39,427 bases of DNA from Perkinsus olseni (GCA_013115125.1 JABANN010000323.1:1-39427), one strand, 5' to 3'; counted from the stretch's first letter, positions 2,255 through 39,427 are shown. A program made the numbers and translations. The notes: generated from the letters alone by a model not told the origin.

Positions 2255-5200
2255 ATGTCGCGGATGAGTCTATCAGCTCGGGGAGACACGTCCAGAGCAA
2301 TGAGTTGCAGTCCATCGCCATCGAGGCCGTCCCCGGTCACTTTCAAATGGGAGAAGGTTCGGACCACCGGTGAGGTGTTCACGCCTCGTACAGGGCATTG
2401 CTGCGCGAGTGTTGGCGACCGTATTTACCTCTTCGGTGGTACGGATGGGGAAAGCAGAAAGTGTGATGTGTACTGTTACTCATGCACAAGACAGGAGTGG
2501 GACCGTGTTATGGTAGGCAACAACGGGTACTGCAATGATCAGCTCCATGAAAATCACGAGTAGTTGGAAACTCCCGTAGTTGTCTATGTGTTATCAGTAC
2601 TTCGATCATCACGCGAATCATATCTTGTTTCGACCGGCTCCTGTCCCGTCGGTCGTGTAACGTAGAGTAGCATCAATTCTGCTGCCTGGGTCTAGAAAGT
2701 CGCAGCTAGGTGGTGCGTCTTCTCAGGTCCAGCGATGCCACGGCGGACATGTTAGCGAACCTCCCGCCAGATCGGGCGCCCGATCTGTCGTGTACGAAGG
2801 AATAGTTTATATTTTTGGTGGCTACACTAAGAAGGACGGCGACTACTTCAACGACACTTGGGCGTTCAACCCCCTCTATCACACGTGGGCTATGCTGACC
2901 GCCGCCGGTGATGTTCCTTCGCGAAGGACCGACCACTCGATGGTTCTGTACGAGGGTAGCGTTTACACGTTTGGCGGTTTTGACGGAAGAAATCGCTACA
3001 ATGATGTGAGTACCATGGAGTTGCCAGCGCATGGGGCCTTCCGAGAGGGGTCTCCGATGGCGAGATGGGAGCTGGTGGATGGACCGGCCACTCGGGCAGC
3101 AACCGGGCAGGAGTGCCCTAGTCCGAGATTCGGTCATTCGGCGGTGGTTCACGGTTCCTGTATGTACGTCTTTGGTGGGTGGGATGGACATGATACCCTT
3201 AATGAGCTGTGGGAGTTCAACTTCCCTTCTGGGAGATGGTAGTGGGGGCCCAGAGTCAGAATAGAGTCTGCAGGTCGGAGCTGTGTCTCCCAGAGGCCCT
3301 CCTCGAACTCCGTTTACGCTCTTGAAAGCACATCCTCAAAAATATGTCACATAAAATATCTCGTGTATTATTTGGTACGTGATGGAACTAAAAACTGGCT
3401 GTGTGCCTAGGGTAATTACCTACGGAAGTTCAGTTAGTAAAAAAACCTGACTGATTTTCGCGCGCGCTCCCGTGAATCAGAATTTGCGCGTTCAAAACAT
3501 TACATCGCGCTGACCACAAGTTCATTGTTGAATCGACTACAGCACCTCGTTGATCCTTCGCTGTGCGTGAAGATACGCAAAGATATGTCGAGGAGTATCT
3601 TTGCTTATAAGGTACCCTGTAGCCCAGCGTGGCGTTGTCCCCCGTCCACGATACCGACACGGATGTGTGGTTATTGATGATAGCATGATCGTATTTGGTG
3701 GAGTAGATAAGGAGCAGCATCGCTTCAATGAGCTGGCCGAACTGAATCTCAACACCGGGGTGTGGTCCAAGCTTGACGTCACAGGAGAGATTCCTACTGG
3801 ACGGACGTTTCACAAATGCAGAGTCTGGCATGGTAGTAACTTATGCTTCGCTCCGCCTGCTTTTCATGAAACAATCCCTATCATAGTTGGCATGACTTTA
3901 CGTGCCTTCTCTCGGAACTCACCTTAGTGTAGGTTGTATCTTCTCGTCCCCTCTGTACCCCATTGCTCATCATCTTTCTGTTTCACCAGTTCGTTGGTGT
4001 TACAGTTTAGAACGAAGGGAACGCAACTTGCGAAAATGAGGCCACTACGTATGTGTCATAGTGGCCTCATTTTTGTATGTGGCATTCCCTGCGTTCACAA
4101 TCATCATACTTCCGTGCGTTTGTCAGGCACGCTCTACCTCATAGGTGGGTTTGACGGCCGCCGGCAGAACGATATGTATCGAGTCGCGATGGAAGAGGGT
4201 CTCAGACAGAGGGCTGCTGCGCTGAATCGACACGAGTCCGCGGCTCCTTCCCGCGATATGGTGCCTTCCCATTGCCAGCAGGAATCTTGCACCTGCTGCG
4301 ATATGTCTTCGAGTTGTGAGCCTCCGCCGGTGGTGATGCCTGAGGATTTATGCAAGTGGCAGAAGGTTGAGACGAAGAATGCTACGGGAAACGATCTGAG
4401 CGGGAGAACAGGACATGCCGCGGTGGTGTGGGGGAAGCACTTGTTCGTCTTTGGCGGCACCGATGAACATGCTCGACAAAACGACGTCTATAAGTATGAA
4501 GCTCACCTAGAATTCTTTCGGAGCCTTAGAGTACAATTATTTTCAGGTTCGATTTCTCGACACAGATGTGGTGCAAAGTGCCGACATCATCTCCTCAACC
4601 CGCAGCGAGGAGCGGGAGTAAGGCTGTGGTTTACAAGGACTTCTTGTATTTATTCGGTGGATATACTAAAAAGGAAGGGGAGTATTTCAATGACATGTGG
4701 AAGCTCAACTTAGCGAAGGGGACTGTAATGATGGGGGCGAGAATAATTGGCTGCAGCGATAATCTAGTGACGCGCACACCGGTTCTTCGATGGCGAATTC
4801 GTGAAAGTGTGGTACCATCTTTCTAATAGTTCCGTTTGAGCGTTGCAGATCATAGCTCAGTGCAGTGAGTCCGAACGCGGTTTTTGGAAGGTGTTTTGAA
4901 TCACATCGGGCATCGGTATGCTGGATAGAAGTTCAGCCGTGCCGGAACAGTTTCATCTGATTTACGTGGTCAGACTCCGCTCCGCTAGGTTTTCCATCCC
5001 ATTCGGTATCCTTGTGATTGAACATTCGTGCCGGGTCTGAACTGCTGTCTGGTTCATGATATCGTTACTCCTCTTCAGTGGACACTCGTGAAACCTAGAC
5101 GGGGTTATCCGCCATCGCCGCGGACGGATCATACCTGCTGCATATTGAGGTAGTATGGAACGGGTCAGGGTTTTGCTTCATCTTCTTTTGCGGCTCTTCG

Positions 5201-7320
5201 ATGACATTCTGGGAGCGCCAGTGCGCGGTCTATGACGATCCTTTCACGGTACCCCGCCTGGCTTGCGGGAGCAGCGGGGAGAAAATTTGGCGAGGGCCAT
5301 CAGCCTCTTGTTTTTAGGTCAAACATATATGTGTTTGGCGGATTTGATGGGCGATCAAGATACCAGGATTTACACATGTAATATGCATGGACTAGGGATC
5401 GAACTCGCGACCTCTTCCAGCTAGGACTCAGTGTTGTGAACAGTCGCGAGGTATTCTTCCGACGCCATCCCGTTGGACACCGACTCAGCCACATAGATTG
5501 AATCTTCGGTACAGCGTGACTTCAGTTTCAACACCGAAGATGAATCTTGGACGGCCGTTAGTCCGGGCAACGAGCCACTGGGGCGATTCGGACACACGGC
5601 GGTTATGTATAACACGTAGGCTGCCCGGTGGTAGCCAACAGCCTTGGAGTTGCGGACTTTGTGCAGGTCGATGTATGTGTTTGGTGGATGGAACGGACAC
5701 GATACGCTTGATGACTTGTAGTATTCCTGAGCTTTGTCAGCAGCTGTTGTCAACGAACAAGAGGTATGCAATCTTAGGTGTGAGTATTCGACAGAATCGC
5801 AGAATTGGCTGTCCGTGCCGGGGCGTGGCGAGATTGTCAGTAGTAGATACAGGCACAGTGCAGGTAGCGGCTCGGGATGAAAACCGTCTGGCTTAAGACT
5901 TCTCGACCCGGGTTGTTCATCACTTTTAGTTGTTTACGGCTGCTGTATGTTCATTTTTGGTGGAGTCGACAAAAAGCAAGAGCGTTTCTCAGATCTTTGT
6001 GAATTCAACTTCGAGACAAGTAATACACGGTGTATCTCAGGAATGAGATTTTTCTCCGCAATTCTATCTCAATGAGAGGCTAGCTAACCTCTCATTTCGT
6101 CGAGTGTGCGGAATCTCCAAGAGTTACTCAGTGGACTCCCTTCCGCTCTCCATCGCATGTGGTATTTCTTCGGCTCCCATTTCTTCGGAGATATTTTTTC
6201 GCAGGAGTCTGGTCCAGAGTAAAGACGTGGGGCGACCCGTCCCCATCGGCCCGCACGTTCCATCAGGCTGTCATGTACAACGGATTCATGTACATCATAG
6301 GTGGCTTTGATGGAGTCAGAAGGAACGATATCTGGTGTAAGTACCTCCGGGTTTGCCTGCTGAGCGCGGAGGCTTTTTTGCTCATACTTATGTTTTGAGT
6401 GAAATAGATCTTTACCGTGAAGACTTCACGCAACAAGTAGCTTTCCTCTGATTATAGATGCGAGTATAGCTAGTCTCGATGCCTGTGGCACGAATGGCTG
6501 CGGCTTGGCGTTCGAAGCGCAAAATTGCACGTCAAAAGTCTGAGAGGCGAGAAAGGGTTCATCTGTGATAGTGCGGATTCCGTTGCTTCGAAGGGTGTAC
6601 AGCGGTCGCGGTAATCAGGTATTCCATTGATTGAGGAGGTGAGCCGATCCGAGAAAGGGCGGCGGAAGCGGCTAACTCTGGGACGGGGCTCGTCGAGAGC
6701 ACCTCTCCGGGAGCTCACTGATGATGACGGTCATGACAATGGTTGGACTAGCAATCCGGACCAACAGCCCGATCAAGGCACAGCAATGCCTGCCGTGGAC
6801 ACGAGCGTTGCCGGCAAGGATACGGATGAGCAACTGAGGATGAGAGCTCGCATTTCGGAGTTGGAAACGAGATTGGCTAATTTGGAGGAACAAAATTTGT
6901 GCAAGGTGGGCTGAATGGCGTCGCAATCTCATTGGGATTTTTGGGAAGGTTTGGTTAGTGAGGCAATTGTGACATTTACTTGGGCTGTGAGTTTCATTCG
7001 GTAATTAGCTGCTGGTCTCCGGAATGTCAAGTCGAATTCTCTCAATGAGATATTAGCATTTGGCTTGTCGGTTCCGCGTAGAATAACATTCGTCTTTCAA
7101 TCACGAAATAGCCGATCCACATACTCCCCAATTTAGCTTTGATGTGGTGTATGGAGATGTGAAGTATCCCTTCGATCAGATATGTTTCGATAGAGCTATC
7201 GACACAGTGCTCTTGGACTGTGCACATCGTGTTGTCTGTCATGGTTGCACTGAGCAGCTGAGCATGTGTCCGGTGTGCAGGAGTCCAATACGGCAAGTCA
7301 TTGTTACTTATGACGGCTGA
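2255..7320 (+). CDS. Multi-exon Kelch-repeat protein (12 blades) with coiled coil and C-terminal C3HC4 RING finger; probable E3 ubiquitin ligase
   Basis: Spliced exons give 12 Kelch motifs (R-x-x-H...Y-x-F-G-G...N-D), the coiled coil QLRMRARISELETRLANLEEQ, then LCK|ICFDRAIDTVLLDCAHRVVCHGCTEQLSMCPVCRSPIRQVIVTYDG* with TGA ending at 7320. ATG at 2255. Confidence 0.9.
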
Positions 7321-8814
7321 AAAGGAGATGGCAGCTACAGTACAATTTATCTAATTATCGCTAATTTTAAAATTTACCTCATTTCTCTGTTCTTGTTGCG
7401 TGGCATGGCTCGGGGGTCACTTTTACGATGGCGTGTCCTAGGACTGCGATGTTAGTGATATAGAGAAGCCTGGATTGTACCATCAGTATTGGGAATCAAG
7501 CTGCGAAGTATCGACCTGATGGTCGGACTCATGGAATTGTGCCAATACCGACGACTTAATTGTCTCCTTTCACATTTGTTGCGATGTTGGGTTCCGAGTC
7601 TATAGGTCGTGTCAGAGTCATCTTGAACGGGGACTCAATTCCCATCGTGAACGTGGACCTCTTCCCTGAGGTCTCTCCCCTGAGGACTCGGAGGTTCGAA
7701 TATTGTCGTGAACCGACCCAATTGAGTATAACGCAGACCCAATCGGATTGATTGAGATTCATTAAATTATTACATACAGACAACAGTAACTTACAGCGTT
7801 GAGATATGCGCTAAGATATTGGCGGGACATATCTGCACAGTCGTTGAGCCAGAGGGCGTTGATGCTCTGCTCTCAGTATGAGACGTCGAAGTCCTTAACA
7901 ACGTCGAAGTCCTCTGGCTTTGAGACCCATAGTCCTCTGCGGAATCTGCAGTGCAAGCGAACTTTTATCTTGCGTCGTCAGTACAGCTGTCGAGCTGCTA
8001 AAGGATGCACCATCTATCGTTAAGGCCTCCTCGCTTTCCTGTATCACGTGGATCAGCAATTTTTCTTGAAGAAGACTTGCTACATAGTTTAACCTTGGTC
8101 TCCAAGCCGGTGTTATGCTGACTCGGAGACTGATTCTTCATGAATGCATTAGCGAGTGCGTGGCTGGGAGCGAGGATCCCATGGTCGCTTGAATCTCGCT
8201 CCATTCATATACACCGGTATATCGGTGATCGGGCATGTATAGGTATTGACCTTCTGGAACAACCGTCTGTTCCAGCGAGTGACTGGCTCGTGAGCGACGG
8301 AGATGAGCGCGAAGATCCCAGGCCGAGAAGCTTTGCAACTTGCAAGATTCGGCTTAATATGCGTGATACTCTTTCAACTGCGATTTCGACCCCGATGCCC
8401 CCCTCGCTGACACTAGCAGTATGGCGTGCCACGGAAGGTGTGAAAGGCTTGAAGTCAGTTTCACAATATGGTTGACTCCGAGTTGATCTCAGAAACATGA
8501 TAGGCGATGCCTTTAGGGCTTACTCCGAGTAAGTTACTCGGCCCCGTTGAGACTTTCACCCCACCAAATGCGATGAAACAAGGTAGGCTCGGGTGGCATT
8601 CATTTACGCGCCCCTTGATGCTGCAAACCACATGGAGCGAGTCAAGCTTCATGCTCACGGTCGTAACTATCCGAGAAGAGCTTTCTTCATAGTCCAGCAG
8701 CATCCTGATCTATGTGAACGGTTCGCCGCGGATCCCCTAGTTGAAATTTCCATTACGGAGTACGCAGTGTGCCATGCTGGGACCCTGCAAGTCGTACTCG
8801 TTCGAGTCTCGAAC

Positions 8815-9015
8815 TTCGAGATCAACAGCGAGGACAGTATCGATCGTGAGTCATGACGGGGGATAGTATGGATTCACTTTGGTTCATGACACCGATATGG
8901 AAGCACCAGCTCCACTCGTACATACTTCGCGTCTATACAGCTACAGCACCAGCGAACCGCATCACCTTGCAGTCGAACGAAGCATCATTCGAGGAACTCG
9001 CTTTTCAGTTCGGAC
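8815..9015 (-). pseudogene. Decayed fragment of a Dada-type transposase (paralog of the 36395-39400 ORF)
   Basis: The minus strand reads ggtgctgtagctgtatagacgcgaagtatgta...agtggagctggtg...catatcggtgtcatgaa, matching 37439-37520 (ggtgctgtacttcgtatagacgcgaagtatgtgcacagtggggcgggtgg...catatcggtgtcatgaa) with indels and a stop codon. Confidence 0.8.
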
Positions 9016-10614
9016 TCCGAGTCTTGAAGCCCTTTGAGTAAGCTTGAAATTTCGTAATCACCGGTAACAACCGCCTTAATCATCGAAGCTCGACGACTTG
9101 ATCCGATCATCATCACTAATATCCTTCAATAGGTCCTCATCCTCATTACTCATATCCTCATCACTGATGATTCATCAGTAGCCTCTGACATCGCATGAAC
9201 AAGAAAGAACAGGGCACAATAACAGGTCTCCCTTTATCCCAAGGCTAGGCTGGTCAGCTAGCCAGGCTCGTGACTAGCGAGTGACTCGCTGCGAGTCGCT
9301 AAGCGCGGCGCTTAGTTAGCTTAAAGCGCCCCTATCTCAGCATACTGAGAATAGCTACGTTAGGTTACTCACAATTTCACTGGACAGGTTCTTTCCTTCT
9401 TCGTTGTGCTACTTCCATTAATCCCAGAAAGTGTTCCAAAATCTCTCAAATTTCCCTCTCAAACTGCAGCATTTGCTTCGCGGCTACGTTTCCGCAAATC
9501 CTACGGACGTGGATTGATGTGGTTCTGGAGAACATGCGGAAGGGGCACACCGATTATGTCCTGCACAACTGAGTGGATCGTCGGCGACGGGAGGGCGTAC
9601 GACCAAATGAAAAGCGTTCAACTGATTGCCCTCTGTATTACAAAGATTGTAACAAGAGCGTAGACGAGGCAACCCTGAGGATAACCAGGTGGATCCGCAG
9701 TTCATTCCGGAGGATTGGGAAGCGTGAGTTCTTGCTCGTAGATCATAAACTATGATTCATAATATGATCTTCATATCCCCTACCTGCACCTTCAGGTACT
9801 TCGTTGAGGGCATCGATGGCGACAGGCACTATTGGCACTGCTTTGTCTGTGGCCGGATCCAGCTTGATACTGTGATAAGCTGATAAGTTGTGTGAGCTGT
9901 AATTGTAACATACAACATACAGTAGCTAAATGTATTCGAGAAGATTAGAACCTAGACCGTCTAGGCTCAGCCTAGTAGGCTGGATGCTCCGACTATGAAT
10001 CGATGATACTAACTGCTCCATCAGTATATCTAGAATCTTTTGTAACCCTGCTCCGCGAGGCTGTTTCCGTCGGAAACTTTCCGATCAATCTTGAAGCGCG
10101 TGATGATTTATACGTATGGACGTACATTCGTGTCGAGGTAGATACGTACTGTCAGTACGGTACTGATGTAGGACGACGCATGTTGGGAATATGCACAATC
10201 TTGTTGTCTCCAATATGACGATGTTCCATGCACCTCTCAGCAGTTCGCGTTCATGCGTGAAAACTTCAACTCGGAAATTCCGAGTCGGAATGGTTTCTTG
10301 TCAGTCATGCTATTAAGGTTAATTATATTGATGGTTGAATGAAGCTGTGACAGCTAAGCTCTCAACTCGACGGGTTTTGAGAGTCCAAACGATGAATATT
10401 GTCGGGATCGTCAATCTCGATTTGATGACGTCTTCCATAACATTATTATGCATGAGTTGAAGCGCTCGGCAATGCCCGCGGTTAATATGTGATGGGCAGA
10501 GAACGACAAATCCTTGAATCCTTGAAGAGTTCGGAAGTTCCGAACTCTCCTACATGCTCATCTGCATCAACACGTTTCACGGACAAAAAATTAACTAACA
10601 GTGACTAAAATGAC

Positions 10615-10701
10615 TAACAGATCCTTGTTTCGGTCAGGACTCCTGAGTCGGGAGGCCTGTTGGTTATGAGCCCAACCCGCCATCCACTGCGCCAAGCTTC
10701 T
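10615..10701 (-). pseudogene. Initiator tRNA-Met(CAU)-like pseudogene
   Basis: The minus strand reads AGAAGCTTGGCGCAGTGGATGGCGGGTTGGGCTCATAACCAACAGGC...TCCTGACCGAAACAAGGATCTGTTA. It has A-box TGGCGCAGTGG, GGG-CT-CAT-AA and an initiator-type A-x-CGAAA T-loop. Stems are damaged and there are ~14 extra nt before the T-arm. Confidence 0.65.
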
Positions 10702-10757
10702 AAGACAGGAATTTGTTTCTGGCCTCCCGCTTGTTCAAGACTTGAATTTCAAGTCCG

Positions 10758-10827
10758 TACACCGTTCTAGCATTGAACCCGAACAACCTGCTGGAGACAG
10801 ATATCCTAATTATTTGACGAACGGGGC
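10758..10827 (-). pseudogene. Degenerate tRNA-like sequence (most similar to tRNA-Gly)
   Basis: The minus strand reads GCCCCGTTCGTCAAATAATTAGGATATCTGTCTCCAGCAGGTTGTTCGGGTTCAATGCTAGAACGGTGTA, with partial acceptor pairing, a GTC..TTAGGAT D-arm, a TCTGT/GCAGG stem with a shortened loop, and a GGTTCAAT B-box. Confidence 0.5.
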
Positions 10828-10887
10828 ACAAATTCTTACTAGCGGACGGACAGTCTCGCGACACACCCGTGACGCCTTCATAGCAGT

Positions 10888-10933
10888 GCTATGATATGAT
10901 AGCTATGATATGATAGCATGATGCTATGATAGC
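10888..10933. repeat. Short tandem repeat (gctatgatatgata x2 plus degenerate copy)
   Basis: Directly visible. Confidence 0.7.
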
Positions 10934-11609
10934 ACCACATTACAATCAATCTACTAAGACCACAAATCGAGCTGGGGATCTCCCCCCGCAGAATCACGCC
11001 CTAATTTTTCATTCAATGAAGTGGAAGATCCTCATGTTCCCAAAAATCATTTTTGAAACGTCTCAAGGGTGTTTCAAAACCTCGTGAGCACTTTTGAGTT
11101 CACAGAAGTCAGTGCCGCGTGAGAGTTAAAGCTCAAACGGTGCCTGAGACGCTGGTTTAACTTAAACCGTACAGTCCTGATTGTGCGATAAATGCACTGC
11201 GATTAGTGAACTGAGAGATCGTCGGAATCGTGACGAACTTGCCCGAAGTGAACGCGCACGCTTCTCATGCCCAGCATACGGCGAAAGCTCTACCCCCAAG
11301 ACACGGAGACGCGACGCTCTTCAATTCACGTCTGTCTCCAGTAGAGACTCCCCACCCATGAATCCATCAATAACCTACCGCTCAGTCTAAGGCGAAGAAA
11401 ATTCTGGTGAGGATGTAAGCCCTCCCCCTAGAGAGAGCCAGTGCGGAGAGCTCGGATAAGGCGGCAATGAAAGCGAATCACTCTGAGCGATCTCGTTTCT
11501 GTGCAGAAGTTACAGACTGCAAGGTGTATGCTATGGTATGACAACTGCTACGGTAACCGTAGTACGGTTGTCAGTTGTACAAATCCTCAGCACTTCCCCA
11601 CACTGTTAA

Positions 11610-28986: not shown

Positions 28987-29058
28987 AGGTTCTATCGGGA
29001 TTCGAACCCGAGTCGCTGGATTCAAAGTCCAGAGTGCTAACCGCTACACTATAGAACC
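28987..29058 (-). tRNA. tRNA-Gln (anticodon UUG)
   Basis: GGTTCTATAGTGTAGCGGTTAGCACTCTGGACTTTGAATCCAGCGACTCGGGTTCGAATCCCGATAGAACCT forms a complete cloverleaf. Confidence 0.97.
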
Positions 29059-34819: not shown

Positions 34820-36286
34820 GCCCTCCACATTCACGAGGTATGAAGGTTATGCACTGAACAGGATGTATCGGTCGACTCTACCATCACACGCTGCGATAGA
34901 GCAGGCATGGCAGCCTCGTGCTCGGCAGAACGAGCAAGAAAACTACAGTCTTCGACTCATTCGAGGGGTGAGTGTGCGCTCATTATTTCGGAGAGAATAT
35001 ATACTAGATTGTGTGCCTCCAAAATTGCCTTAACTCGCACCTGGCGGGTTGAGATTCCAAGAAGGGATGCACGTGTGAGGGGATTTCGGAGGACCTGGAA
35101 CCCAGGGACTTCCCGCGAAATCGATAATAACGTGTTTTTATCGACATTTGGTGATGAGCATGATAATCAACGACAATGTATCGCCATGACCTTATATGTA
35201 CGCTCCGCCGGAAATTTTCGTCGAACCATGGTACGCTGGTTCATTTGAGTATGAAGTTGTGTTTCCGAAAACTTCAGGCAAAATTTGAATTCATTCAGTT
35301 GCCCACAACAAGATGGCCGGAAGATGTTGCTGAGCTCAATGCAGCTTCGTTCGTAGCTGGAACCGGTATTGTAGCCTACTCTCCATCACGTTTACTCCAG
35401 CGTCCTCGTTTTGCAGGCCATCGGACTGCCATGAATGCCATAGAGCGTGCGTTGGTGGCCCCTGCTGTTAGAAGGCTAAGCTACTCCCAGGTCATACATC
35501 GACCTTGTCCTATTGTACTGTGATAGACTTTCAGTTATTACCGGCGCGTGACGAAGTCAGAGCTCCGCGTCGAGCTCTCACTCTGCCACAAATCATCGGT
35601 CGACTACCCACCACTACCTCCAATTTCGTGCTGCCTCTGCAAGTAACCAGTCTCGGATGATTACTGTATTGCCGGGCCGAGTCAGATCAGTTTCTAGGCT
35701 CTTACTCCTCCGCCGTAAATTCTCGCTCTCCACGTAGACAAATAGTAGTTTGATTCTTATCAGCAGAGTGTGATCTCAGATGCCTGGCCTAGACTCAGAA
35801 GTGTCCCACGAGGCCCAAACCGCCCGAAACATTGCGGACTCTACTCTCGGCCGATATAGCGTGAGATCGGCACTACTACTCGTCTGTTTGCGGCTATTTA
35901 TAATCTCTGAGTTGGAAATGTTGGGCAGGCAAGACGACTCGAGGAAGTAATCTCGCCGATCTCGGACTACTTGAGTTCTTCCCAAGGCTCAGGGAGTCCA
36001 GATTGAACGTCGCATATGTGACCGTGGTGTTGATGCAGTTGTCCAATCACTAAGTTTCCGAGTTCAATATGGTGGAGAGCTTCCACCGGAGACCTCCTCT
36101 ATGATAGAGGCTCTATCAGACCAAGAGTGGTTCAATGTCGAAATCGTGACGCAAATTAGCATTTTTGAGTCTACTAGCGCGTGTCGGCACGCCGGCGAGC
36201 GGAGACAGTGTGAAGAAGAGATTTCTGATAGTGTCAAGAAACGGTCGCGCGAAAATTTGTGAAACGCCCTTGTCCAGAAGAAGCTC

Positions 36287-36347
36287 TTCCACGGCCGAGA
36301 ATTGAACTCGGGTCTCCTGCGGGGCAGCGCGGGATTCTGACCCACTA
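36287..36347 (-). pseudogene. 5'-truncated tRNA gene (GCC in anticodon position, Gly-like), interrupted in the A-box/D-arm
   Basis: The minus strand reads TAGTGGGTCAGAATCCCGCGCTGCCCCGCAGGAGACCCGAGTTCAATTCTCGGCCGTGGAA, with a perfect T-arm CCGAG/CTCGG and a 3' acceptor strand CCGTGGA. The matching 5' strand (TCCACGG) is absent and the anticodon stem is imperfect. Confidence 0.8.
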
Positions 36348-39300
36348 ATCTAAGACTAAACTAACTACTTTAGAGTAATATAATAAAAAGCCCATTGGAG
36401 CTGCTGGGTGGCTCGAGTTCATCTCTCGAGCCTCTCTTGGTTGCAGAGCAACCACCAGCAGGCAGTCAAGGCGAAGTCGTTGAGATACCGCAAGTCTCCG
36501 GCGGGTCACAGTTGAACTTGGTGGGCTCTGAAGGAGGGGCCGCAGGATCCGATCAGCCGGCTACAGTTCAATCCTCACTCGAACCTAATCGGGACGGCTT
36601 GAACACGGACAGGAACCCCTTCTTCAGGGCTGCGTTTGCCATTGATGATAAGGAACCTGGATTGCCAGCTAGCAGCAGTCAGTCTGGCTGGTCTATCTGC
36701 CCGCAGTGGCAACGTAAGGCGTGGCAGAAGGTCCTGAAAGATAGCGGGTCGACGTGTCTGGCACGTGAGGAGTGTGAGTGGGTTGAACAGCCCAAGATCA
36801 GGAAGAGCTCCTTGCCGGACCCGGAGATGCTGGCGCTCAAGAGGATTTTTATCTTCAACCCAAGCCCAACGTCTCTGAAGTGTCCAGGGTGCGGCAAAGC
36901 CGGGGTGCTGAACCGCAAGGGAGTATCTACCCTCAAAGGGTTCGTCGCCCCTGGCTCACGGGGATATGTTGTCGGTGTACGCGTCCACTGCGTCCGTGGC
37001 GACTGTGGCGGTCGTGTGTTCTCCACGAACTCTTCTGAGTTCTTGGACGTGCAGGATCCAGATATTCAGGACCTGTACCCGACGCGCCTTCCGCGTAGTG
37101 GGACGTCCGTAGTGGTCGACGATAAGTTGCTGGCTCGCATTGGGAGATACTTCATCGGTGGTGATGCCAATTTCTCTCGTCTGTGCGAAGCTATTAGGGA
37201 GGAGGACTGGGTGGACTATATGAGGGTGGGCCGGGAGTATTGCAGGTGGGTCAAGACCTGGAGGAGGTCGGCCGTGGCAAAGCCGCAAGGTGTCGTGATT
37301 CGGCCTTGGATGACTTTTGAGGAGTTTTACCATGGTATTTTCCTGAGCGAGGTTCAGCTTCGCGATATATTTATCGAGCTGTCCGAGCGCCGCAGGGGCT
37401 TTGTCAAAGGGTGTCTCCTTCAGCCGCAGGGAGACGTGGGTGCTGTACTTCGTATAGACGCGAAGTATGTGCACAGTGGGGCGGGTGGTTTGCCGCGTGT
37501 ACATATCGGTGTCATGAATGAGATGGGGTCCATAATAGCCCACGTCATGATTGACACCGACAATACCGCGGATTTGGAGGGTATGGTTGATGGTCTCAAG
37601 ACGCAGTATGCCGGCCGTGGGGAAGACCTTAAAGCTGTCTATGTAGACCGGGGTTGCTGTTCGGCCGAGTTTGTGCGGCTTTTCTCCCGCATAAACCCCA
37701 CCGTCGCCATAAAATTGGATTTATTCCATTGGGCACGGAGGATCGAACAGTATGTCCGTGGTTACCATCCGATTCGGTCCTCATTCTTCTCCGCTCTGCG
37801 ACAGTGTGTCTTCATCGTAAACCGCGATGATGAAGAGAAAGCACTAAGAGCGGTGCGGAGTACTGGTCGGTGGGCAGAAGGTCTGAGCAGAAGAGAGTAT
37901 AGTCGTGATGTACGCAAGGTCATTCCAGAGCCTTCGACTTTGCGAAGTCGCCTCGATGCGTTTCACGACTACTATACTCGGCTCAACGGGCAGCTTAGCC
38001 GGACAGGAGAAGGCTTCTTGCTAGAGGGGTTCGAAGAGCAGTGGCTGGAGAACATGAAGCACGTTGACGGAGGGTGTCTCAGTGACCATCCAAGCGCTCC
38101 TCTCTACACCAAAGTGGGGCAGGAGTTGGTCGGGGAATACACTCTTCCGATATGGAGGGTTGCGCGCTCTACCTCTCAACTTGAAGGCTATCATGCCGAG
38201 TTGGCAAAGTCCTACAAGTCTTCGAGGATGAGTGCGAATCTCCTGAACGCAGTGGTTCACGAGCTCGCAGCCCAGTGGAACCGTCGTGCTCTCCAGAAGG
38301 TTGGGAAAGATGTTTGCCCCATCACAGACTTGAAGGAGTGGAGTGATTTCAAAGCTGGGATGGGGAAGTTGTTGTTGTCGGAGGAAGAAGGAGGGTTGCC
38401 GAAGGGTCGGTATTATGATGAGCACGCTGCCACGAAGCTGAGCTTCGGCCTTGACTATGCTGCAGACTTACATCACTCTAAGTTGCTGCGTCACCTGGTC
38501 GAGGAAGGTGCAACGGACATGGCCGATCCGAAGTGGCTTCAGTGCGAACCATCCTCCAGCTCCTCCACCGCTGCCCCTGTGGTCAACGATGAAGACAGCG
38601 ACACGGAGTCTCTCTGGTTTGATCTAGGGGATGTCGATGAGAAGTTTATCATGGAGGAGACGGCTCTGGAGGAAGGTGATGAAGAAGGGAACCCACCAGC
38701 GGGCACTGCAGAAGAAGGGGCGAGACAGGTTGCTCAGGGTGGCTCAGTCGCTCGACACGGTCAAGGGGATTTGCGGAAACAATCATTGAAGTTCCGCACG
38801 TCTGTGTTCAAGACTCAGAATCCTCTAGCGAACCCACGGTCAGCGACGCTGTTCAGACAGTTAGATGGTAAGTATCAGTCACTGGAGGTTGCTGATCGTG
38901 CCGTGCGGATATGGGCCGATTTCGAGCTTCAGCGGAATGTCGAGGCCACTTCTGCTTCTTCGTTGAGGGGAAACTTCCCTCCGCGGGACCGGATCGTGAA
39001 AACCAGCATCACATGGTGCATGAAAGCTTTGCGGCAGCTTTCGAAGCTGAAGGATAGTGCGGACGTCTCAGGGGGAGGGCCTGACATTCCACCGGCACAG
39101 AGTAGTTTCGAGAGAGAGTACACGTTCAATCCGGAGTTGGGCAATCTTGATCGTAGAGATGATCCTGCTGAGCCGACTCCCCTAGCCGAAGAGCCCGGTA
39201 TATGCGTTGGTGGGGAGTCCGTCTACCGCACAGTGGCTTTGGAACTCCAGGAGCTGATAAGAAAGAGGGAGCTCTATATTTCTAGAGGCACTAAGCGCTG

Positions 39301-39427
39301 CGGCACATGCGGGGTACCATTCAACGTCCCCGATAGGCCACAGACACATCCGTTTACAGTGCGAACCAAACCGTTATGCAAATCACCATTTCTGAGGTAA
39401 CTTGCTCAATAAGAAGAGTTTATCAAT
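36348..39427 (+). mobile_element. Dada-superfamily DNA transposon inserted in a tRNA gene (right end outside window)
   Basis: Begins where tRNA similarity stops, has a short AT-rich end, then one intronless transposase ORF. Confidence 0.8.
36395..39400 (+). CDS. Dada-type DDE transposase (first in-frame ATG at 36827)
   Basis: N-terminal CPGC...CVRGDC zinc motif. Candidate catalytic motifs LRID, VYVDRGCC, IKLDLFHWARR (DxxH), CLSDHPSAPLY and RVARSTSQLEGYH. C-terminal CGTC...H...C. Intronless in an intron-rich neighbourhood. Confidence 0.85.
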   Translation: MELLGGSSSSLEPLLVAEQPPAGSQGEVVEIPQVSGGSQLNLVGSEGGAAGSDQPATVQSSLEPNRDGLNTDRNPFFRAAFAIDDKEPGLPASSSQSGWSICPQWQRKAWQKVLKDSGSTCLAREECEWVEQPKIRKSSLPDPEMLALKRIFIFNPSPTSLKCPGCGKAGVLNRKGVSTLKGFVAPGSRGYVVGVRVHCVRGDCGGRVFSTNSSEFLDVQDPDIQDLYPTRLPRSGTSVVVDDKLLARIGRYFIGGDANFSRLCEAIREEDWVDYMRVGREYCRWVKTWRRSAVAKPQGVVIRPWMTFEEFYHGIFLSEVQLRDIFIELSERRRGFVKGCLLQPQGDVGAVLRIDAKYVHSGAGGLPRVHIGVMNEMGSIIAHVMIDTDNTADLEGMVDGLKTQYAGRGEDLKAVYVDRGCCSAEFVRLFSRINPTVAIKLDLFHWARRIEQYVRGYHPIRSSFFSALRQCVFIVNRDDEEKALRAVRSTGRWAEGLSRREYSRDVRKVIPEPSTLRSRLDAFHDYYTRLNGQLSRTGEGFLLEGFEEQWLENMKHVDGGCLSDHPSAPLYTKVGQELVGEYTLPIWRVARSTSQLEGYHAELAKSYKSSRMSANLLNAVVHELAAQWNRRALQKVGKDVCPITDLKEWSDFKAGMGKLLLSEEEGGLPKGRYYDEHAATKLSFGLDYAADLHHSKLLRHLVEEGATDMADPKWLQCEPSSSSSTAAPVVNDEDSDTESLWFDLGDVDEKFIMEETALEEGDEEGNPPAGTAEEGARQVAQGGSVARHGQGDLRKQSLKFRTSVFKTQNPLANPRSATLFRQLDGKYQSLEVADRAVRIWADFELQRNVEATSASSLRGNFPPRDRIVKTSITWCMKALRQLSKLKDSADVSGGGPDIPPAQSSFEREYTFNPELGNLDRRDDPAEPTPLAEEPGICVGGESVYRTVALELQELIRKRELYISRGTKRCGTCGVPFNVPDRPQTHPFTVRTKPLCKSPFLR

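Follow-up and report, generated by a model that had tools for sequence, protein, structure and literature searches.

We analysed a stretch of 39,427 nt of Perkinsus olseni DNA (GCA_013115125.1, JABANN010000323.1:1-39427), referred to here in its full length as the window, and find that its right end most probably (at a likelihood of roughly 70%) carries one copy of a cut-and-paste DNA transposon of the Dada superfamily, residing in a perkinsid genome, with a left junction at tRNA nt 8, a chimeric tRNA flank, a repeat nested within its transposase gene and, probably, no capacity for autonomous transposition. The part of the element inside the window consists of its left terminus and the transposase gene up to codon F990 (36353..39354, plus strand). 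This part lies within a single unbranched contig in each of two runs (3,090 nt in X1 and 3,092 nt in X2), and in both its k-mer depth equals that of its unique flanks.

According to the mechanism published for this family, the DDE transposase would recognise a hexamer at tRNA nt 8-13, in the A box, and staggered cuts would be followed by insertion of the element, leaving the tRNA split and the hexamer duplicated. The left junction in the window would then read as a tRNA remnant starting from nt 8 with TAGATT, followed by the element, whose transposase gene runs away on the opposite strand. A TA-flanked multicopy repeat would have become nested in the gene at codon 990, which falls within the C-terminal zinc finger.

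The tRNA junction and its chimeric flank

The tRNA remnant on the minus strand (36287-36352) adjoins the plus-strand open frame (36374-39400). With cmscan we obtained a tRNA match at 36295-36352 (minus strand, model positions 8-63) of 14.6 bits, which is under the 29-bit gathering score; its E-value is 2.7 in a search of 4227 families against 301 nt, corresponding by arithmetic to about 6e-4 for the tRNA family alone. ARAGORN and Rfam at its gathering threshold made no call at 36287-36352, and by eye the remnant extends to the discriminator base at 36287. Since the D arm is complete in the cmscan alignment, where it is also covered with high posterior probability, the break falls at tRNA nt 7/8 (36352/36353). 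The initial annotation was right that a minus-strand tRNA body stops in its A box, but it placed the break at 36347/36348, whereas the actual position is 5 nt further right.

With the junction at nt 7/8, the hexamer of tRNA nt 8-13, TAGATT in the tRNA sense (36347..36352, minus strand, positioned by cmscan), would be one copy of the target duplication (TSD). Directly across the junction, on the element side, stands TAGTCT in the tRNA sense (36353..36358, minus strand), a hexamer identical to the published TSD of Dada-tG_PMar and possibly carried along by the element; TAGTCT occurs 12 times in the 39,427-nt window when both strands are counted. Perkinsus marinus Dada families insert at tRNA nt 8-13 and have nt 8-13 as their TSD according to PMC8869645, and their insertion position in tRNA is likewise given in the Results of PMC3706591. 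The opposite orientation of the element against a tRNA broken in the A box, which had been recognised from the start, is the arrangement published for these P. marinus families. Contigs from other copies (X8 record 27, X8 record 26 and a loose end of X1 at 36357) join the nt 8-37 piece to the element in the same way. We consider this junction the likely true insertion site, seen from one side, in a chimeric tRNA that scores below the Rfam gathering threshold; insertion at nt 8-13 is read from this one junction, because the window ends before the right terminus, the other TSD copy and the 5' half of the tRNA are reached.

The flanking tRNA is composed of two different tRNAs. Its 3' part, approximately nt 38-73 (36287..36321, minus strand), comprises the 3' anticodon-stem strand, variable loop, T arm, acceptor strand and discriminator, and is common to a high-copy array tRNA ('tRNA-A') that we take, by resemblance, to be Asp-like. 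Downstream of it in the tRNA sense is the spacer of the array unit (36124..36286, minus strand; unit of about 239 bp), whose very high copy number is evident from k-mer depth: summed depth in X1 amounts to 251,484 and 189,214 in bins 36136-36371, versus 139-154 in neighbouring stretches. Loose ends occur before 36124 in X1, X2 and X8. Contig sequence from run X7 agrees with the window up to 36321 and diverges beyond, joining 36321 to 41 other letters and then to 36124; these 41 letters stand in the array tRNA in place of the segment 36322..36352. Unique contigs begin at 36294 in X1 and 36292 in X2, as expected for 31-mers first reaching 36322-36324. The segment 36322..36352 (minus strand) aligns in cmscan as nt 8-37 of a second tRNA ('tRNA-B'), with a complete D arm, the 5' anticodon-stem strand and a loop with the anticodon GCC. 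As read from the sequence, the anticodon stem of the composite tRNA has no pairing.

The flank thus unites nt 8-37 of a Gly(GCC)-like tRNA with nt 38-73 and the spacer of the Asp-like array unit, a chimera that explains the otherwise puzzling combination of a Gly anticodon with an Asp/Glu-like acceptor. A new target specificity had been proposed on the basis of this combination; the mixture reflects two joined tRNAs rather than a novel one. Because the nt 8-37 piece runs through single-depth contigs of X1 and X2 without a branch, no identical intact tRNA-B gene is evident in these two runs, which is odd for a multicopy target. A search of metagenome contigs with a 24-nt stretch of the piece returned 0 matches.

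The chimera also bears on where the mobile unit begins. It is conceivable, but in our judgement unlikely, that the unit starts at 36322 and not at 36353, carrying 31 nt of a former target at its left end, and that its insertion site was the anticodon loop of the Asp-like array tRNA, at nt 37/38. Such a boundary would agree with the end of array-type sequence at 36321, with X8 record 27, which has only 36319-36394 in common with the window and differs on both sides, and with the nt 8-37 piece showing no sign of a multicopy gene in X1 or X2. Moreover, the anticodon arm of tRNA-Asp and tRNA-Val is the insertion site of fish Dada-tD and Dada-tV, the sites used by Dada elements are concentrated at nt 8-13 and around the anticodon, and the composite keeps canonical tRNA length while its anticodon stem is unpaired. 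However, the nt 7/8 junction fits the Perkinsus rule exactly, as set out in PMC8869645, and the chimera could equally have come from recombination between tRNA genes after insertion. No published Dada element is known to bear a tRNA piece at its end, the sole known case being subterminal target-like repeats of 7-9 bp (PMC3706591).

The 31-nt tRNA piece (nt 8-37) is bounded by the A box and anticodon-loop hot spots and travels with the left end in every copy seen. A related and rather doubtful proposal is that a Dada transposase made an alternative cut in the anticodon loop of the flanking tRNA and so moved flank plus element together into the anticodon loop of a different tRNA, from an array of roughly a thousand copies. 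If true, this alternative cut would amount to flank transduction and dual-site recognition by a single Dada lineage, and the copy would also stand for a new family in Perkinsus, one whose target is TAGATT (Gly-GCC-like). Our preferred reading remains an element that starts at 36353, next to tRNA nt 8.

The transposase frame and the nested repeat

The open frame extends over 1008 codons from stop to stop (36374..39400, plus strand) and begins 21 nt past the tRNA break, in agreement with the initial observation of a frame of about 1000 codons on the opposite strand within 50 bp of the break. The other five frames of 36374-39400 contain 20-53 stops each, and their longest open run is 254 codons. 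The catalytic core extends from D358 to E600 (37457..38185, plus strand; P0001 numbering), with the intervening motifs D421-R-G-C424-C425 and D445-L-F-H448. The residues D358, D421, C424, C425, D445, H448 and E600 hardly vary across 18 aligned sequences, and those of the DDE and DxxH motifs are similarly constant in an alignment of 49 sequences. The first and second D are spaced by 63 and the second D and the E by 179, the corresponding values for Dada-U6_DR being 68 and 176 (PMC3706591). An N-terminal CCCC zinc motif (C166, C169, C202 and C207; 36881..37006, plus strand) has the consensus CPxC...CxxC in the alignments, and such a motif is named for Dada in that paper. The C-terminal CCHC zinc motif (39299..39355, plus strand) retains C972, C975 and H988 and is cut before its fourth ligand; C998, which would complete the finger, is encoded by the nested repeat and not by the Dada element. 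Relatives run on after the His-Pro-Tyr/Phe of this finger, whereas the window copy stops there. Thus, the catalytic motifs (D...D-x-x-CC, DxxH and E) and the first of the two zinc motifs originally listed are borne out, and the second is present without its fourth ligand.

The sequence that interrupts the gene (39355..39427, plus strand) is the terminus of a multicopy dispersed repeat, reading TA and then CAGTG..., which runs off the window. Its boundary lies at 39355, the modal position: among the 23 loose ends listed as preceding 39347-39359, 16 fall there. Sequence from 39355 on has many different upstream partners, and the X1 contig over 39359-39427 has a depth of 1367. The window ends 72 nt into the repeat, to which the last 15 codons of the open frame (39356-39400) belong. 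A second, diverged terminus is found in inverted orientation at 40-71, with the same TACAG start and 25 of 32 nt alike. The repeat may be Tc1/mariner-like, elements of that type having a TA target duplication and terminal inverted repeats that open with CAGTG; here TA followed by CAGTG stands at the modal boundary. Comparison of the last 98 nt of the window, whose bases are those of the nested repeat, with the left end, inverted or direct, gave a score of 13 against a shuffle mean of 16. When the right-end repeat was examined as a possible small RNA, the sole Rfam match was a chance one, of 14 nt, to a snoRNA, and there was no match to the P. marinus spliced-leader exon and intron oligonucleotides (Table 1 of PMC3101222). 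A possible splice donor (ctgag followed by gtaac) is located at 39393-39402, and the frame may continue after an intron.

At the 5' side of the gene, the first in-frame ATG is at 36827 and conserved codons begin from about 36569. In several distant relatives the protein begins no more than 35-45 residues ahead of the zinc finger, and translation from 36827 could still yield a protein with a complete core. Alignment of P0010 begins at 36569 and that of P0156 at 36575, and the 80-82 residues at the start of these two proteins match nothing in the window; at the other end, P0002 and P0007 run about 130 and 115 residues past the end of similarity at 39352-39355. The view of the element as apparently intact and potentially active is not supported: no ATG precedes the conserved codons, the N-terminal domain seen in relatives from P. 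olseni is missing, and the C-terminus is cut at 39355. The start codon, full C-terminus and two termini of an autonomous element are not found together in this copy, which is probably no longer autonomous.

A diverged copy in X8, about 89% identical, allows coding constraint to be examined. Among the 32 listed differences (of about 300), 20 are synonymous and 20 are at third codon positions. The diverged copy is itself frameshifted, having gained 14 nt at both 37532 and 38160 and lost 1 nt at both 36694 and 37684. The window copy looks recently inactivated, because its frame has no other break and most of the listed differences to the diverged copy are synonymous. The X8 copy has the same chimeric flank and may represent this very locus, or a segmental duplication of it, rather than an independent insertion. 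Run X7, which we guess to be RNA, yielded few low-depth contigs over the gene, and the non-coding flank was covered too. Around a second Dada relic in the window (6000-11500), no tRNA fragments were found at E<=10.

An immobile Dada-derived gene, retained by the host (domesticated) and no longer a transposon, would also be expected to show a depth equal to that of unique flanks in X1 and X2, a long unbroken frame and mostly synonymous differences among those listed to the X8 copy, and domesticated dDada genes are known in carps and minnows. We nevertheless regard this as very unlikely: all catalytic residues are kept here, whereas dDada genes often carry mutations in the D residues and the DxxH motif, no ATG stands before the conserved codons, the repeat cuts the 3' end, and the diverged X8 copy has frameshifts. 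Very little credence can likewise be given to an intact autonomous element that starts at 36827 or at a non-AUG codon and whose frame continues past 39397 after an intron. The unbroken 1008-codon frame, the AG followed by GT at 39397/39398 and the short N-termini of some distant relatives are compatible with it, but similarity to relatives ends at 39355 and not at 39397, sequence from 39355 on is a multicopy repeat with many upstream partners, and a diverged terminus of the same repeat is present at 40-71. In addition, P. marinus Dada elements are reported to be without introns (PMC3706591).

Family membership and predicted fold

A phmmer search against 1.84 billion representatives returned 531 matches at E<=1e-3. 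Proteins of Perkinsus olseni and P. chesapeaki are the closest relatives, with 52-68% identity (53-68% in the phmmer search), and no near-identical transposase was present in the public collections searched, where the best match is 68% identical. A Kelch/RING exon likewise has no close match, its best ones being only about 50% identical and coming from dinoflagellates, Amoebophrya and Chromera, and we describe the host as Perkinsus-like. Distant matches from fish and Branchiostoma cover the core (25% identity over 439 columns, E 1e-21). The AF2 model of the core (pLDDT 88.4, pTM 0.87) adopts a predicted RNase H-like DDE fold with an inserted helical domain. Its top PDB match in Foldseek is the transposase of ISCth4, of the IS256 family (E 2.5e-4), followed by the integrase cores of RSV, PFV and HIV and by Hermes, in agreement with the kinship of Dada with such transposases stated in PMC3706591. 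The best Atlas clusters (0.92-0.96) are annotated as DUF6729 or are unnamed and come from Chordata and Basidiomycota; the next are Mutator/MULE clusters (0.81-0.83). Relatives thus come from taxa listed for Dada, namely Perkinsus, fish, Branchiostoma and Basidiomycota. Pfam at E<=1 gave nothing on the protein except a chance zinc-ribbon match, and comparison of the single transposase protein with metagenome contigs gave 19 pattern matches and no relative. Our literature search found no paper naming DUF6729, and nothing relevant with both 'Dada' and 'Perkinsus' beyond PMC3706591 and PMC8869645.

Motifs, relatives, modelled fold and Atlas clusters agree with the initial assignment, and they indicate that the protein is a Dada-type DDE transposase, placed beside Dada by the published description. 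That it belongs to another DDE superfamily (MULE/MuDR, KDZ/Zisupton or hAT), with the tRNA a coincidental neighbour, is extremely improbable despite the Mutator/MULE clusters at 0.81-0.83 and the IS256-family and hAT transposases among the PDB fold matches, since no Pfam MULE, KDZ or hAT domain is detected at E<=1, the best Atlas clusters (0.92-0.96) are the DUF6729 or unnamed ones, the motif set and spacing match the published description of Dada, and the junction is at tRNA nt 8. MULE or KDZ membership was rejected on the missing Pfam domain, the Dada motif set and this junction.

Relation to known elements and significance

The copy most closely resembles the published Perkinsus Dada elements, with which it shares the host lineage, the DDE and DxxH motifs, the CCCC zinc motif, the first three ligands of the CCHC zinc motif and a frame that no intron interrupts within the window. 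It differs from them in its flanking hexamer, TAGATT followed by AG instead of TAGCTC with AG or TAGTCT with AA, and in its flanking tRNA, which reads GCC (Gly) rather than TCC in the anticodon loop and is chimeric with an Asp-like array tRNA. Among fish elements, Dada-tY, -tK, -tN, -tR and -tS (nt 8-13) and Dada-tD and -tV (anticodon arm) define the same two hot spots, and the tRNA-B piece spans exactly the interval between them, from nt 8 to nt 37/38. For Dada-tA and Dada-tY, too, cases are known in which the hexamer beside the element does not match the native sequence of the target; unlike in those elements, the foreign hexamer here is added beside the target hexamer and does not replace it. 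Fish Dada proteins are only about 20-26% identical to the protein of the window, belong to a 1400-aa class and are encoded by elements with introns. IS256 (ISCth4) and MuDR/MULE transposases have in common with it the RNase H-like DDE core, the helical insertion and the C/DxxH signature, but are without tRNA-site specificity and the Dada zinc motifs, and no Pfam similarity is detectable.

To our knowledge, Dada elements are the only DNA transposons that insert at fixed sites in multicopy small-RNA genes. Because of this fixed-site insertion, active Dada copies are of interest as safe-harbour integration tools, and the element had been put forward as a candidate for targeted-integration work. 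As the copy looks disabled, it is not a ready tool of this kind, and in itself it offers no usable, demonstrably active element. It appears to be one disabled copy of a known kind of element, Dada in tRNA genes of Perkinsus-like parasites; tRNA-targeting Dada elements of Perkinsus, including a tRNA-Gly family, have been in print since 2013. What the copy adds is a further diverged Perkinsus Dada lineage, which appears to follow the nt 8-13 rule and to do so with TAGATT, a so far unlisted hexamer, and, in its chimeric tRNA flank and nested repeat, a view of how such insertions decay.

Transposase of the open frame

An open frame of 1008 codons runs over 36374-39400 on the plus strand, opening 21 bases past the break in a tRNA, and the remaining five frames over this interval hold 20-53 stops each. 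A Pfam search of its protein gave no match. A full phmmer scan recovered 531 relatives at E<=1e-3, the closest of which (53-68% identity) are partial hypothetical proteins from Perkinsus olseni and P. chesapeaki, with two unnamed fragments from a public-run assembly (P0011 and P0013); remoter relatives come from fish and Branchiostoma. DUF6729 occurs among the first five matches once above and once below the Pfam cut-off. Residues D358, D421, C424, C425, D445, H448 and E600 are near-invariant in an 18-sequence alignment, an N-terminal CCCC zinc motif is present, and the C-terminal CCHC motif has its first three ligands. In the available text of Kojima and Jurka (PMC3706591), a DDE triad with DxxH, corresponding here to D358/D421/E600 and DxxH, is the Dada signature, and the catalytic spacing of the window protein resembles that of Dada-U6_DR. 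The AlphaFold2 core model (pLDDT 88.4) best matches ISCth4, an IS256-family transposase, followed by retroviral integrases and Hermes, kinships stated for Dada in the same text. Neighbours in the ESM Atlas are DUF6729 clusters (Chordata) and an unnamed cluster in which Basidiomycota is the most frequent phylum, with Mutator-like clusters next. We conclude that the frame encodes a predicted Dada-type transposase, assigned via published Dada descriptions; motif set, spacing, predicted fold and relatives agree on the identity proposed in the initial annotation.

A second, decayed Dada-like relic lies at 7925-8950 (minus strand), with 32% protein identity to residues 186-338 of the relative P0002 in two frames and a 112-nt stretch sharing 73% identity with 37439-37550; a search of 6000-11500 at E<=10 gave no tRNA fragment close to it. 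Exons of a Kelch-repeat/RING-type gene at 2661-4713 (plus strand) have their best relatives (~50% identity) in dinoflagellates, Amoebophrya and Chromera, evidence in favour of an alveolate host genome.

Junction with a chimeric tRNA

The sequence at 36287-36352 (minus strand) reads as a tRNA remnant made up of the 66 3'-terminal nucleotides, as delimited by cmscan and extension by eye. Model positions 8-63 were aligned to 36295-36352 with 14.6 bits, below the gathering score of 29; E was 2.7 when 301 nt were compared with 4227 families. The acceptor strand and discriminator reach down to 36287. Neither ARAGORN nor Rfam at gathering threshold called the remnant, the sole call in the window being a tRNA-Gln (anticodon TTG; 28987-29058, minus strand), which is intact, scores 71 bits in Rfam and has no element interrupting it. 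Since the cmscan alignment shows a complete D arm, the first base of the remnant is nt 8 (36352), 5 nt rightward of where a break within the A-box had originally been marked; the break itself stands.

In tRNA sense the remnant opens with TAGATT, then AG. The six element-side bases at the junction are TAGTCT, the same as the Dada-tG_PMar hexamer and present only 12 times in the window on both strands together; we infer that this hexamer was brought along by the element. According to the accessible part of PMC8869645, Perkinsus Dada target site duplications correspond to tRNA nt 8-13, fish families cluster at nt 8-13 and the anticodon arm, and flanking hexamers are sometimes swapped for an 'ancestral' hexamer. 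The window junction appears to fit the Perkinsus rule. The element's first bases (36353-36376, minus strand) consist of short TAG-starting units in tRNA sense (TAGT, TAGTT, TAGTCT) directly before TAGATT, a run that may represent either stuttered target-like hexamers or repeats to which the transposase binds.

The flanks were analysed by aligning Logan contigs from four public sequencing runs (X1, X2, X7 and X8) to 35900-39427. Summed k-mer depth in X1 over 36124-~36321 was 251,484 and 189,214, compared with 139-154 in adjoining stretches, a difference of three orders of magnitude, and one X7 contig passes from 36321 through 41 different letters to 36124, implying a tandem unit of ~239 bp. The window locus holds only one, partial unit of this array of tRNA plus spacer (36124-36321, minus strand; depth roughly 1000-fold that of single-copy sequence), connected to unique DNA at 36124. 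The reverse complement of the loose letters preceding 36124 gives a tRNA acceptor strand and D arm, from a tRNA that we take to be Asp-like; this D arm is unlike the window's, and therefore the window has in common with the array only the tRNA 3' part (~nt 38-73) and spacer. Unique contigs begin at 36294 (X1) and 36292 (X2), where they should start if the earliest private 31-mer extends to 36322-36324. Judged from these contigs, 36322-36352 (nt 8-37, loop GCC) derives from another tRNA, making the remnant a chimera, which explains its unpaired anticodon stem. The Gly-like anticodon and Asp/Glu-like acceptor remarked on in the initial annotation are both seen, but the odd mix is accounted for by the chimera, and we found no evidence for the new target specificity that it had suggested.

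The best supported left end of the element is 36352/36353, at the nt 7/8 junction, favoured because this junction agrees with the published nt 8-13 rule. Alternatively, the left end lies at 36321/36322, in which case a 31-nt tRNA piece would move with the element and the array tRNA would be targeted in its anticodon loop. One X8 record (27), common with the window only over 36319-36394, and one X1 contig, the same as the window up to 36357 and different thereafter, fit either placement.

Missing gene ends and a nested repeat

The earliest in-frame ATG is at 36827, and alignments with the P. olseni relatives P0010 and P0156 begin at 36569 and 36575, so ~85 conserved codons precede it. Neither the first 80-82 residues of these two proteins nor the first 77 of P0008, a Met-initiated relative, match anywhere in the window. 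At the other end, likeness to P0002 and P0007 stops at 39352-39355, just past the CCHC-finger His, beyond which these relatives have ~130 and ~115 further residues. The sequence from 39355 (39355-39427, plus strand; TA then CAGTG, cut by the window end) is the terminus of a multicopy repeat, and therefore the frame's last 15 codons and stop are foreign. Of the 23 loose ends listed 'before' 39347-39359, 16 lie at 39355, across all four runs, and a short X1 contig spanning 39359-39427 has a depth of 1367. A diverged inverted terminus (25/32 nt) lies at 40-71 on the minus strand, starting with TA then CAG and likewise cut by the window end; the two are ends of a single dispersed repeat family, which all four runs contain in multiple copies. 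A start of TA and then CAGTG is a Tc1/mariner-type signature, and the repeat may have an end of this type.

With conserved codons left without an upstream ATG, the CCHC finger cut at 39355 and ~115-130 residues gone, the description of the element as apparently intact does not hold. This copy was probably disabled, and recently, as the unbroken frame argues.

Copies and relationship to perkinsid Dada

The element forms one unbranched contig each in X1 (36294-39383) and X2 (36292-39383), of depth 139 and 80, beside left-flank contigs of 154 and 79; the depth of a contig cannot be read as copy number, and no second near-identical copy is evident in the X1 and X2 contigs. Long contigs at the right end (depths 156 and 89) match only 39355-39420, with 9 differences. 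A copy in X8, ~89% identical, departs from the window after 39348 and continues for 457 nt. Of its roughly 300 differences, 32 are listed (36756-37049); synonymous changes make up 20 of these, and third codon positions likewise account for 20. The synonymous share indicates that the transposase gene evolved under constraint. Frameshifts in the X8 copy come from two insertions of 14 nt and two deletions of 1 nt. Both insertions, at 37532 and 38160 in window coordinates, consist of a 6+1+6 palindrome with one additional base, and they look like hairpin-type excision footprints.

Eight Dada families of Perkinsus marinus are described in the available text of PMC3706591, none there with introns and five within tRNA genes (Leu, Ile x2, Gly, Tyr). 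The window element (36353-39354, plus strand) may be one of these. On its sequence, it appears to be a diverged addition to the known tRNA-targeting Dada of perkinsids, seen from one junction.
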